Assembly: GCF_003097315.1 (NCBI RefSeq)
Contig: NZ_QDDL01000010.1
Location: 41,969 to 105,968, forward strand
Source of the DNA: Pelagibaculum spongiae
GTDB taxonomy: Bacteria > Pseudomonadota > Gammaproteobacteria > Enterobacterales > Pelagibaculaceae
Reading direction: 5' to 3'
DNA: 64,000 nucleotides
The notes beneath the pieces are model-generated. The model was given only the letters and a program-made list of their open reading frames with translations, was not told the DNA's origin and searched no databases. The translations under genes were made by a program, and so were the position numbers. Shown piece by piece: positions 25,475 to 33,741 of this stretch. Positions within the stretch are counted from its first letter, which is position 1, and the number at the start of each line of letters is the position of its first letter.

Positions 25475-28400
25475 TTAGTTCTGCTGCAAGTCATCACCAA
25501 TCTTCTTCACTCGTTGCCAAATATCATGATCCATTTTCAACTTGTGATCCATTGCTTTTACTACCGGTAGCAATGAAGTTTCGATGGTATTTGCCAGCGC
25601 TTGTAGCACTTTGTCGATACCCGGTTGTGGCTGGTTAATCACTTCAACATTAGGTCTGGAGTGCGCGAATGACTGAGACAGCACTGTAGCAAAATCAACC
25701 TCGGAAATGTGCTGCAGTTGCTGTTTTAACTGTGAGATTTCTCTGCTGATTTCAGCTGAACCATTATCAATATTCGACATTTTCTGCAACTGACTGGCAA
25801 TTACCGATAGCTGTGAAACCGCCTGTGCAGTCGGATCATCCTGATCACCCAAGGTACGGAGGCGCTTGTACTCAGAGCAAATTTCACCCCAGCGCAAACT
25901 TTCTACTTCCGTTAACACACCCCGCAGCTGCTTTAATTTCAGTACGTTTTCTTCGGCACCTGTGGTGAGTGTTTGCGCTTCACCTTTGTAGTGGTCATCG
26001 ATCAGTTGTTCTAGCTCTTGATCATTCATTACCGCACTGACTTTTTCCGACAACCGCGCCATATTGCGATAACTACCTTGCAAACGAAACGGCGGTTCTT
26101 CCCGGTAACGATCATCTTGCGCTGCAGAAGCAATATATTGCTGATTCACCGCTAACAAGACTTGCTGCACTCGTAAGAGTTTTTTCAATACGCCGGTAAT
26201 TTCATCTAACTCGGCGGCGGCATATTCATGGCCAAGATCATCGGTCGATATCGCTTCGCCTCGTGCCAAATCAATCAGCAGATAAATGTCGGCCATATCC
26301 CGATTTACTAGCGGTCGTAATACTTCATTGCTGGCCAGCGCATTTTCAACATAACTGAGTGAGAAGGCATTTTCAGAACCACCAACCAAATCACCCAGGT
26401 TATAAATATCAGCCCGGTTGGCAAGCATATCGGGTATCGAGAAGGCTTCGCCGGATTCGGTATAGGGATTGCCCGCCATTACAACGCAAAAGCGTTTACC
26501 GCGCATATCGAAAGTACGTGGCTCACCATTAATGACACCTTCAATCCTACGGGTACCGTCACAAAGCGAAATAAATTTCTGCAAAAACTCTGGGTGCGTA
26601 TGCTGAATATCATCCACCACCAGCATCACATTATTACCCATTGCCAATGCCAGATTTAATCTTTCCAGCTCACGAGCAGCACCAGAATCAGGGGCTAAAG
26701 CAGGATCCAATGAAGTGGTTTTATGCCCCAAGGCTGGGCCATTGACCTTGATAAACACTAACCCTAAACGGCTGGCGATATATTCCACTAAAGTAGTTTT
26801 ACCGTAACCGGGCGGTGAAATTAATAACAACAAACCTGACCGGTCGCTATTACTATTGCCGCCCGCTGCGCCTAATTGCTTGGCTAAGTTAGCGCCTACT
26901 AACGGCAAATAAACTTGGTTGATTAATTTGTTTCGAACAAAACCACTCATGGGTTTAGCTTGATATTCTTCCAGCTTCAGCGCTTCACGTCTGTCAGACA
27001 AAGCTTTCTGTCGCTGCTTTTGATAACCCTTGAAACCTGGAACCAGCTGGAAACGGAAATGATTTAACCGCTGTTCAAATTCATCAACTGCCAATGACAA
27101 CTGGCCATTTTTAATCGTGGAATGCTCAGACAATAAACCGTCTACCGAAACCTGAGACTGCATCGGCCAAACCCGGCGGTTTAATTTGCTTTCATCAATC
27201 AACAATACTGCTGCTTCGGCAATATAACGATTGGCAGTCGATCCATCATCAATCGAATCTTGCGCACCAATTAAAGCACCCAGCCATTGGCTGGCCACAA
27301 TAAACTGCTGATTAATGGAAAGGCTTTTTAACAGATCTTTAAATGCTGACTGCTGTTTGGCCGCTGCCAGCTGTTGTTGTAACTGCTCTGCCAGCTGCTG
27401 CGCCAGCTCACTGGTTGTGAACTCCAGCCGCTGATTACCTGACGCATCGACCGCGAACTCTGCAATTAACCAGGCTGCGGCATCTCTTGCCAACACCAGT
27501 GGATAGCCCTGACTTTCTCCACCCAAATGGTTCAGCTGGATTTCAATTGATTGCTGCAGTTTTAACTGCAAGCTTTCAACTGCCGATCTGGCATTGAACA
27601 ACAGCTGCATTCGACTGGCATTGGCAGCTTCAATGAGCCATTGCTGCTGATCAGAACGGCTTTGTTGCATCCACCACAATTGCGCCAGTGCTCTGGGCAA
27701 AGGAGCAAACCTTAAAAGACCGGCATTGGCGCGTAATGGCAATAATTGTTCAAGAATTTTACAGGCATCATGATCATGAATACCTTTGGCATAGCTATCC
27801 TGGTAGCGCTTGGAGGCGAACTTGCTAACCTGGCTCAATAACTCACCTTCAGAAAGTGCTTGCTCCAGCCCAGGCAAAGTCAAAGAGTGGGTTTGCTTTT
27901 CTGCCGCATCAATAATTTCTGCAACCAAATATTCGGCTCTGGCAACCTCAGCATTTTCTGAAACTAATGGCTGGTCAGCATATAAATGATCGCTTTCTGC
28001 CAGAGTCGAATAGTGTTTTGCCAGCTTTTCGTAATAATCACTGCCAGTTAAATGAAATTTAAGCTGATCATTTTGACGAATCAGGGTTAATTCCATCGGC
28101 CGGGTATTTACATTAAATTTGTAATCACCCAGTTTGATAATTCGCCCACCATCTTCGAACAAATCAGAACGATCTCTAAGCGAACGAAGCGCCTGGTCGC
28201 GAGCTGAATTTAATTTACCAGATAATTCATCTGCCAGAACGACGGCTTCAAGCTGACGCATTTGATCAATCAAGCCGCGCAGCTTATGTACCATGGCATC
28301 GCCAGAGAACCAGGCGTTTAATGCATCAGCTGTATCAAACTTTTCAGATTTTTGAGCAATTGACTGGAAAATACGTTCTGCAGCTTTTTTCAGGTTGTCG

Positions 28401-33090: not shown

Positions 33091-33741
33091 CTAATTTCTA
33101 TGTAATGTTGATTCTTCTTCTGATTCAAGAATCCAGTAGCTATTCTCTGGCTCGTCGTACTCAACGATTAATGCTTTGCTACCTTTTTTCAATTGATTAG
33201 GTGTTTTTGATCGGACTTTAAGAATTAAACCTGCACCGCCATCTTCCAATGCCGCTTGGCCAAAAGTTTCGCTGACTTCCAATGAAGTTATTTTGCACAC
33301 TTCACCGCAAACCGATTGGTTGCTACGTGCTTCATGGGTGGTATAAAAACGAACCAGCGGTTTAATCGCAATAACAGTTATCGGCAAGGCAATCACGATC
33401 GACACCAACAAGATAGCGGCACCGATTAGCCAGCTAAAAAGACCACCATCAACCAGCTGTAGCATTAGCCATTGACTGGCATAGAGGGTGGGCACCCAAG
33501 CAAAAATAAGCCACAAGCTAATAGATAAGGGTAAGGGAACACCAGAAAGGCCTAGGTTATAAAGCAAGCCACTAAAGCCTGCGCCAACATCTTCAGGCAT
33601 ATCGATATCTATATCGGCATCCACTAGATCGATATCTAGTACACCGATAAAAGCCAGCATCCAATAAACCAGAGCAACCATAACAGGCACAGTCAACAAG
33701 ACTGCTGGCCAACTGAAAATCAATTGAAACAGAGCACTCAA
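33091..33741 (-). CDS. yqiJ: NfeD/YqiJ-like membrane protein (OB-fold C-terminus)
   Basis: Multi-TM N-half, C-terminal soluble OB-like domain. Canonical partner upstream of flotillin. Confidence 0.7.
   Translation of the reverse strand: MSALFQLIFSWPAVLLTVPVMVALVYWMLAFIGVLDIDLVDADIDIDMPEDVGAGFSGLLYNLGLSGVPLPLSISLWLIFAWVPTLYASQWLMLQLVDGGLFSWLIGAAILLVSIVIALPITVIAIKPLVRFYTTHEARSNQSVCGEVCKITSLEVSETFGQAALEDGGAGLILKVRSKTPNQLKKGSKALIVEYDEPENSYWILESEEESTLHRN

Follow-up and report, generated by a model that had tools for sequence, protein, structure and literature searches.

A 64,000-nucleotide (nt) stretch of the Pelagibaculum spongiae genome (contig NZ_QDDL01000010.1, forward-strand positions 41,969–105,968), referred to below at its full length as the window, carries on one strand three adjacent genes coding for a small YqiJ-like membrane protein, a flotillin-like SPFH protein and a giant 1782-amino-acid (aa) ATPase. 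We propose, with a probability slightly above one half (about 0.55), that these three genes represent the conserved core of a membrane-stress module, in which the giant ATPase works as an ATP-driven remodeler that acts at the inner membrane on flotillin and, where PspA is present, on PspA as well. The operon is no new kind of system and represents a clean, minimal three-gene example of a known operon class described by Ravi et al. (mSystems 2024, PMC11237479).

Conservation of the three-gene neighborhood

A scan of one genome per species identified at least 596 species with a relative of the giant protein, and the counts given below were obtained from the 80 best loci, which were found in Gamma-, Beta- and Zetaproteobacteria, Myxococcota, Actinomycetota and Acidobacteriota; annotated records added Bacteroidota and Deinococcota. 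In all 76 loci where its presence could be tested, a flotillin-like gene with the same orientation immediately preceded the giant gene, the contigs of the other four loci beginning at the giant gene itself. This count bears out the link between the giant ATPase and flotillin/NfeD that had been suggested in the first-pass annotation of the window, the giant gene being found with, rather than mostly without, such neighbors in other genomes. A YqiJ-like gene preceded the flotillin-like gene in 71 of the 80 loci, and the flotillin-to-giant gaps fell mostly between −8 and ~220 nt, with a median below 100 nt. The link between the genes of the module is biologically meaningful.

Clustering of the flanking open reading frames (ORFs) with a Pfam check revealed genes for DUF2170 (YjfI/CesT-like) and PspA_IM30 upstream of the module in 35/80 loci. 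A gene for a single-HKD PLDc_2 protein was located downstream in 14/80 loci, and TelA occupied a downstream position in 12/80 loci, all from Xanthomonadales. These accessory genes indicate membrane stress. No pspA, DUF2170, PLD or telA gene was detected by tblastn within the 64-kilobase (kb) window (best E >0.5).

The Hymenobacter (Bacteroidota) operon consisted of genes for a Tir chaperone, PspA, a DUF1449 protein, a 722-aa protein and the ATPase, in this order, and Deinococcus (Deinococcota) contained the three-gene form. On pQBR103, a 425-kb Pseudomonas megaplasmid (L088, NC_009444.1 86443–103593), the three-gene module was found directly after yjfKLMC-like genes coding for DUF2491, DUF350, DUF1190 and glutathionylspermidine synthase family proteins, an arrangement in which two of the operon classes that Ravi et al. 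link to PspA come together. The module was absent from 50,697 phage records and present in 13 of 72,556 plasmid records, all of these plasmids being at least 169 kb in size.

Additional genes were observed between the flotillin-like and giant genes at several loci. Some loci of the Pseudomonas group (Phytopseudomonas, Aquipseudomonas) and of Lysobacter contained a gene of 80–95 aa at this position (L013:9653-9940, L014:9596-9838, L015:9567-9827), the product of which showed weak similarity to TerB and EF-hand domains (E ~0.005, under the cut-offs). Betaproteobacteria and one Pseudomonas metagenome-assembled genome contained instead a zinc-ribbon protein (Zn_ribbon_TFIIB, up to E=7e-19; L035:9360-9893, L056:9376-9924, L060:9374-9919, L063:8448-9014, L065:9224-9595), reminiscent of the zinc-ribbon partners in Firmicutes PspA/band-7 operons. 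The operon was split by mobile or selfish insertions in two loci, by two tandem PD-(D/E)XK transposase-family genes in one (L033:7997-9897), and by a pair resembling a nucleotidyltransferase/HEPN toxin-antitoxin together with a 512-aa ORF in the other (L037:6931-10025).

Domain organization of the three proteins

By its sequence, the giant protein is a member of the catalogued DUF3686 / 'DNA repair ATPase' family. Pfam DUF3686 (PF12458) matched residues 53–510 at E=1.6e-185 and covered 447 of the 448 profile positions, Pfam DUF7902 matched residues 636–719 at E=1.3e-21, and the protein was 100% identical to the NCBI entry 'DNA repair ATPase [Pelagibaculum spongiae]'. More than 5000 relatives were present in the databases; besides the 100% self-match, the best 120 homologues were 1724–1812 aa long and 45–50% identical over 97–100% of the query. 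The N-domain searched alone against 1.84 billion representatives returned 672 clusters at 50% identity, 229 of them with E<=1e-30, and in the full-length matches, which were proteins of 1600–1900 aa, this domain was always N-terminal. The initial view that the protein could not be assigned to a characterized family was thus superseded by its membership in the Pfam DUF3686 / NCBI 'DNA repair ATPase' family, by the operon class of PMC11237479 and by a counterpart, bacE, in Pseudomonas aeruginosa.

The giant protein appears to be soluble and cytosolic, with no transmembrane (TM) segments detected; the flotillin-like protein contained one such segment and the YqiJ-like protein three to four. Its N-terminal region consisted of a long helix (residues 32–68), a beta-propeller-like all-beta domain (74–435) and a helical bundle (451–559). 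The following region was low in Pro and Gly, contained 40–48% charged residues and displayed a heptad (3.5-residue) periodicity with z values of up to 7.5 in residues 505–630 and of 2.5–4.3 in residues 660–840. Because significant heptads were limited to these two segments and residues ~890–1290 formed a folded helical domain, the coiled coil comprised ~350 aa, half of the ~700 aa that had been estimated at first.

Two AlphaFold2 models of the giant protein were built from 36-sequence alignments. The model of residues 880–1782 (predicted local distance difference test, pLDDT, of 79; predicted template modeling score, pTM, of 0.64) contained the middle domain, an AAA+ alpha/beta domain followed by a helical lid, and a helical C-terminal extension. 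The middle domain (~890–1290) was confidently modeled (pLDDT ~90) and matched no Pfam family and no known structure. The C-terminal extension, modeled as helical with pLDDT of 50–90, contained two conserved blocks (~1560–1640 and ~1725–1770) connected by a variable low-confidence linker, and a heptad signal was detected in residues 1610–1720.

The AAA+ motifs noticed in the first-pass annotation were all found in place (GYGKTT at 1339–1344, VVDDIQ at 1402–1407 and MAGNPY at 1449–1454), and the protein passed the profile searches: Pfam AAA_5 scored 26.4 bits against a cut-off of 22, covering 124 of the 139 profile positions, and Pfam AAA and AAA_22 also exceeded their curated cut-offs. The Walker A sequence SPPGYGKTT (1336–1344) was invariant in the family, as were the sensor-1 residue N1452 and the candidate arginine finger R1470. 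The Walker B sequence MLVVDD (D1404, D1405) contained Asp at the position of the catalytic Glu of AAA+ proteins and was invariant in all 36 aligned members, and the same applied to the string D-D-I-Q-H (VVDDIQH at residues 1399–1408, window ~26600–26629, minus strand); by its fold and its remaining motifs the module is nevertheless assigned to AAA+. In the model, a beta hairpin (1426–1439) located between helix 3 and strand 4 was read as a pre-sensor-1 insertion. The motif string of the module, DDIQHTHPEFLQKFISLCDG, then the hairpin, then VVMAGNPYTE...LANRADIY, resembles what we take to be the MoxR/AAA_5 pattern, DEINRAxP...ATQNP...DRF.

Structure comparison of the AAA+ model gave the highest scores for the MoxR ATPases NorQ (11.1) and CbbQ (11.0), followed by dynein (10.6), midasin (9.8), ClpA and ClpB (9.1 and 8.9), classical AAA proteins (8.7 or less) and McrB (8.2). 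Because of this ranking, the pre-sensor-1 hairpin and the motif string, the modeled AAA+ module likely belongs to the MoxR/dynein/midasin group. Alignment of the AAA+ family with single E. coli RavA, McrB, FtsH and RuvB sequences by hhalign was limited to 22–42 columns around the P-loop, and therefore no clade was called from it. The classical AAA clade, to which sequence matches in the PDB confined to the surroundings of the P-loop (E ~2e-4) had pointed, was not favored by the structure comparison. The giant protein is not a MoxR ATPase in the strict sense because of its length of 1782 aa and the lack of a VWA partner, no VWA protein being found among the window neighbors (by Pfam) or among the conserved neighbors.

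The YqiJ-like protein consisted of three to four hydrophobic segments, an acidic loop (residues 36–52) and a C-terminal beta-rich soluble domain (~140–205). The flotillin-like protein consisted of an N-terminal TM segment (1–27), an SPFH domain (~30–200) and an Ala/Glu-rich coiled coil (~200–560), and its C-terminal region carried a conserved IVGG.G.FF motif. At the level of family profiles, the flotillin identity assigned in the first pass held and the NfeD/YqiJ identity was probable; the single proteins of the window scored under the Pfam Band_7 and NfeD thresholds. By hhalign, the flotillin-like family profile (25 members) matched E. coli YqiK with 99.9% probability (E=1.3e-32, 395 columns), and the YqiJ-like family profile matched E. 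coli YqiJ with 86% probability (E=5e-6, 137 columns). Five of the 25 flotillin-like family members reached Pfam Band_7 (best 5e-11); the window protein alone remained under this threshold and yielded weak matches to NCBIfam FloT (E=3e-4) and Pfam Flot (0.021). For the window YqiJ-like protein, no Pfam NfeD or YqiJ match was obtained above threshold, YqiJ_N was weakly matched by one of 22 family members, and the Hymenobacter counterpart was annotated as a 'DUF1449 family protein'. Neither profile matched the PDB.

Proposed role of the giant ATPase

Evidence for co-transcription, co-regulation and phage induction comes from the literature and concerns P. aeruginosa only, where Mace et al. (2008, PMC2587700) described the bac cluster PA3729–PA3732 and Wallart et al. 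(2024, PMC10948618) extended it to bacABCDEF, with reverse transcription PCR (RT-PCR) products obtained over every junction, including bacD to PA14_16190. In the bacA mutant, BacB–BacF were 6- to 13-fold more abundant (PMC10948618). Expression of PA3728–PA3732 was increased in all phage-infected P. aeruginosa samples (PMC12041424), and PA3728, listed as 'ATPase', appears in a review table of genes that were mutated in three longitudinal studies following cystic fibrosis isolates (PMC8190622). PA14_16180 was named PaFlo3 and described together with the short NfeD PA14_16160 (PMC13086221).

This 'biofilm-associated cluster', or PSP-like system, extends over PA3732–PA3727 (PA14_16140–16200). Its bacC (23-kDa short NfeD/YqiJ-like), bacD (PaFlo3, 76 kDa) and bacE (PA3728/PA14_16190 'ATPase') genes correspond to the three genes of the window, and the related Pseudomonas loci have the same gene order and strand as the window. 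The published RT-PCR primers (PMC10948618) were located by blastn in these loci: one matched with 20/20 nucleotides inside the flotillin-like gene of L014; another, once one T was dropped from the published reverse primer, fitted the 5′ part of the giant gene in L012 and L013 (19/20); and a third was placed close to the 3′ end of this gene in L007 (14/14). Because of these matches and the synteny, we strongly infer that BacC, BacD and BacE are the window's three proteins, an equation drawn from primers and gene order rather than from an aligned P. aeruginosa sequence. The reverse primer in question, PA14_16180/90_R (GCGATGCAGTTGTTTTTCGGT; supplementary file 1 of PMC10948618), fits the RTENNCIA-coding region of the giant genes minus one T of its T-run; the extra T could be either a typographical slip or a P. 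aeruginosa difference at this place.

The observed gene order, homology, domain anatomy and strict synteny would fit the following scheme. The core is an 'abbreviated' form of the CesT/YjfI-PspA-YqiJ-flotillin-AAA+(-PLD) operon. The flotillin-like protein would be anchored by its single N-terminal TM helix and, by analogy with the solved SPFH cages, would oligomerize through the SPFH domain and coiled coil, giving rise to a large assembly at the cytoplasmic side of the inner membrane, with the polytopic YqiJ/short-NfeD-like protein as its putative membrane partner. The soluble giant protein would dock on the flotillin assembly through its propeller-like domain and long coiled coil, and also on PspA polymers where the same operon encodes PspA. 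Its MoxR/dynein-type AAA+ module, presumably a ring, would then spend ATP to remodel, disassemble or recycle these polymers during envelope stress. The membrane-microdomain-anchored mechanochemical machine proposed in the first-pass annotation can, in this sense, reasonably be inferred.

Several points weigh against this scheme. Physical interaction, oligomeric state, ATPase activity and whether the reaction runs toward assembly or disassembly are the parts of it that we infer. The window contains no pspA, and any link to PspA in this organism would thus require a pspA gene in another part of its genome. Judged from the sequence, the Asp-for-Glu replacement in Walker B may result in slow hydrolysis or in a nucleotide-gated switch as a trait of the whole family. 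MoxR ATPases usually act with a VWA/MIDAS partner, and none was present here. Foldseek matches to the PDB were weak (mostly 1e-3 to 1e-2), included a mixture of clades and did not discriminate between them, and the P-loop strand and the sensor-1-to-beta5 stretch (1456–1480) of the model were of low confidence (pLDDT <50). Finally, biofilm was reduced by only ~20% when paFlo3 was deleted, and the deletion caused no strong stress phenotype (PMC13086221).

The giant ATPase could also be an assembly chaperone and not a disassemblase, loading, folding or inserting the flotillin/YqiJ complex or a client into the membrane microdomain, a role that we consider unlikely, though worth keeping in view. 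The propeller would stand in for the VWA adaptor, on the model of the MoxR ATPases (NorQ, CbbQ, RavA) that mature or cofactor-load a specific client. Such a role is consistent with NorQ and CbbQ being the best structural matches, and with the S. aureus SPFH/NfeD complexes, which are cited in PMC13086221 as ATP-independent holdases.

Considerably less probable is a function in anti-phage defense or abortive infection, in which the ATPase would detect an infection and set off membrane damage via the flotillin or YqiJ-like protein, or via a PLD/HKD effector. The induction of PA3728–PA3732 in all phage-infected P. aeruginosa samples (PMC12041424) would suit this function, and yet phage induction is the defining behavior of phage-shock (PSP) systems. 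Likewise, a single-HKD PLD gene followed the ATPase gene in the 14 loci mentioned above, but none accompanied the window copy. Defense systems often contain large coiled-coil ATPases; however, PADLOC returned no meaningful match for the three proteins, the only similarity being of P-loop length (IetA, E=0.0012 over 29 residues). Further arguments against this function came from the scarcity of the module in phage and plasmid records and from conserved neighbors related to envelope stress (PspA, TelA) rather than to defense.

We see little room for a structural, SMC-, dynamin- or cytoskeleton-like tether, in which the long coiled coil would do the work and the nucleotide site would serve as a switch. 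The ~350-aa coiled coil, the helical C-terminus and the DD Walker B, which suggests slow hydrolysis, are compatible with a tether; the nucleotide-binding domain, however, has a canonical AAA+ fold, and no ABC/SMC head, hinge or dynamin GTPase domain was detected by Pfam, NCBIfam or structure comparison, which left the SMC/dynamin alternative of the first-pass annotation unsupported.

Participation in DNA repair, as stated in the database labels (Pfam DUF3686 'ATPase involved in DNA repair'; NCBI 'DNA repair ATPase'), can practically be dismissed: beyond the label itself it is favored by a weak similarity to RuvB, which spans only ~40 residues around the P-loop, and it is contradicted by the absence of any DNA-binding or nuclease domain (Pfam) and of repair genes among the conserved neighbors, and by strict partners that are membrane proteins. 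Our literature search found no paper with the term DUF3686, nor with 'DNA repair ATPase' in combination with SPFH, and no evidence in support of the label emerged, which we regard as a mislabel of the giant ATPase family.

The significance of an ATP-driven remodeler lies in the nature of its proposed substrates, since flotillin/SPFH cages and PspA/ESCRT-III polymers are ancient membrane-organizing and membrane-repair assemblies. To our knowledge, no energy-consuming remodeler of flotillin or PspA assemblies is known in bacteria, and the giant ATPase family is an obvious candidate because of its strict linkage to flotillin across many phyla and its frequent linkage to pspA. More tentatively, and with considerable doubt, the giant DUF3686 ATPase might be the bacterial counterpart of Vps4, a disassemblase or remodeler from a different AAA+ clade that would recycle flotillin cages and co-encoded PspA polymers. 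According to a 2025 review, a PspA regulator resembling Vps4 'appears absent in bacteria' (PMC7619361). If the counterpart proved true, bacterial PspA/flotillin remodeling would become a directly testable question.

Transcription unit in the window and comparison with known systems

The positions of the operon genes, of the giant ATPase domains and of a downstream hairpin are listed in Table 1.

Table 1. Features of the operon and of the giant ATPase in the window (coordinates of the window; residues of the 1782-aa ORF).
Feature	Coordinates	Strand	Basis
YqiJ/DUF1449-like ('short NfeD') inner-membrane protein	33741..33091	-	ORF, 216 aa, TTG start
Flotillin-like SPFH protein (YqiK type)	33047..30954	-	ORF, 697 aa
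Giant ATPase, DUF3686 / 'DNA repair ATPase' / BacE family	30823..25475	-	ORF, 1782 aa
N-terminal domain, residues 53–510, DUF3686	29294..30667	-	
Coiled-coil region, residues ~505–850, including DUF7902 (636–719)	28274..29311	-	heptad periodicity
Middle folded domain, residues ~890–1290, small beta sheet and helical bundles	26954..28156	-	
AAA+ module, residues ~1325–1560	26144..26851	-	
C-terminal helical extension, residues ~1560–1782	25478..26143	-	conservation and model
creA, signal peptide or lipoprotein-like	25436..24948	-	ORF, 162 aa, Pfam CreA E=8e-44
Stable hairpin and UUUU run, candidate transcription terminator	24870..24928	-	RNA fold

The same-strand order NfeD/YqiJ, flotillin, giant gene and creA reported in the first pass was reproduced for all four ORFs, including the flotillin-to-giant gap of exactly 130 nt; the YqiJ-like/flotillin and giant/creA gaps were 43 and 38 nt, respectively. 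Shine-Dalgarno-like sequences preceded all four starts. The TTG start of the YqiJ-like gene, with AAGGAG located 8 nt on its 5′ side, agreed with 21 homologues. For the giant gene, the second ATG (Met5) is the likely start, producing a protein of 1778 aa, because a GAGG sequence 7 nt on the 5′ side of this codon was better placed than at the first ATG, and because the public annotation of the protein also starts at Met5 and gives 1778 aa.

A simple terminator scan detected no terminator-like sites between the four genes, and owing to the long loop it also missed the hairpin located between creA and the next gene. This hairpin, a 14-bp stem with a nested inner stem, had a folding free energy (dG) of -27.2 kcal/mol (z = -4.85 versus shuffles), was followed by UUUU, and may be either a terminator or a repeated extragenic element. 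The absence of a terminator-like site between the genes together with the hairpin after creA indicates that creA is probably co-transcribed with the three-gene module here. A CreA homologue was found near the module in one of the 80 loci, and creA, which had been counted as a member of the operon, was therefore ruled out as a component of the system; its placement is a lineage-specific accident of gene order outside the conserved module. The correct strand contained no sigma-54 site ahead of the first gene, the matches in the window being no more frequent than by chance, and the sigma-54/sigma-70 promoter scans returned fewer promoter-like sites than in shuffled sequence.

A gene divergent from the operon (34124–34786, plus strand) codes for a YopT-type cysteine protease (Peptidase_C58, E=1.8e-11; NCBIfam yopT domain at 8e-10, under its cut-off), possibly a secreted effector in this sponge-associated marine bacterium. 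It is followed by genes for a DUF3592 protein (34890–35522, plus strand) and for the enoyl-ACP reductase FabV (35623–36819, plus strand; NCBIfam E=1e-212), which represent an ordinary housekeeping context and not a defense island. On the other side, directly after creA, a 643-aa protein with an N-terminal hydrophobic segment (22931–24862, minus strand) had no Pfam match at E<=10, its sole match being a faint N-terminal likeness to the signal region of the lipoprotein SslE.

Compared with bacABCDEF of P. aeruginosa, the window operon lacks bacA (DUF2170/CesT-like), bacB (PspA) and bacF (PLD-like), and contains creA in the downstream place; a sigma-54 site was proposed upstream of bacA, whereas none was found upstream of the window's first gene. 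The yqiJ-yqiK pair of E. coli and the yuaF-floT pair of B. subtilis are homologous to the first two genes of the window and have the same order, but contain no ATPase gene, with sibD/ibsD following yqiK in E. coli. In this comparison, the flotillin-like protein of the window is 697 aa long versus 553 aa, and is too divergent to be recognized by Pfam Band_7 alone.

The MoxR ATPases NorQ, CbbQ and RavA are proteins of ~300–500 aa with a VWA partner, unlike the 1782-aa giant protein, which lacks such a partner and has the DD Walker B. Dynein and midasin contain six modules per chain, in contrast to the single AAA+ module of the giant protein starting at residue 1325. The resemblance to ESCRT-III/Vps4 is a functional analogy only, the AAA+ gene adjoining the gene for PspA, an ESCRT-III-superfamily polymer, in 35 of the 80 loci.

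Among the closest known systems is also the operon class of Ravi et al. (PMC11237479), for which ATP-dependent sub-membrane remodeling or assembly was already proposed. 'Abbreviated operons' without the PspA dyad, consisting of flotillin, the YqiJ/YuaF protein and the ATPase only, were described there as more widely distributed, and the window operon, with the same domain architectures and gene set, is such an abbreviated form with no difference in kind. To this description our analysis adds the synteny counts and a sharpened domain map of the giant ATPase, in which a propeller-like domain, a coiled coil of ~350 aa and a middle domain precede, in this order, an AAA+ module with a likely MoxR/dynein-like placement and a DD Walker B.

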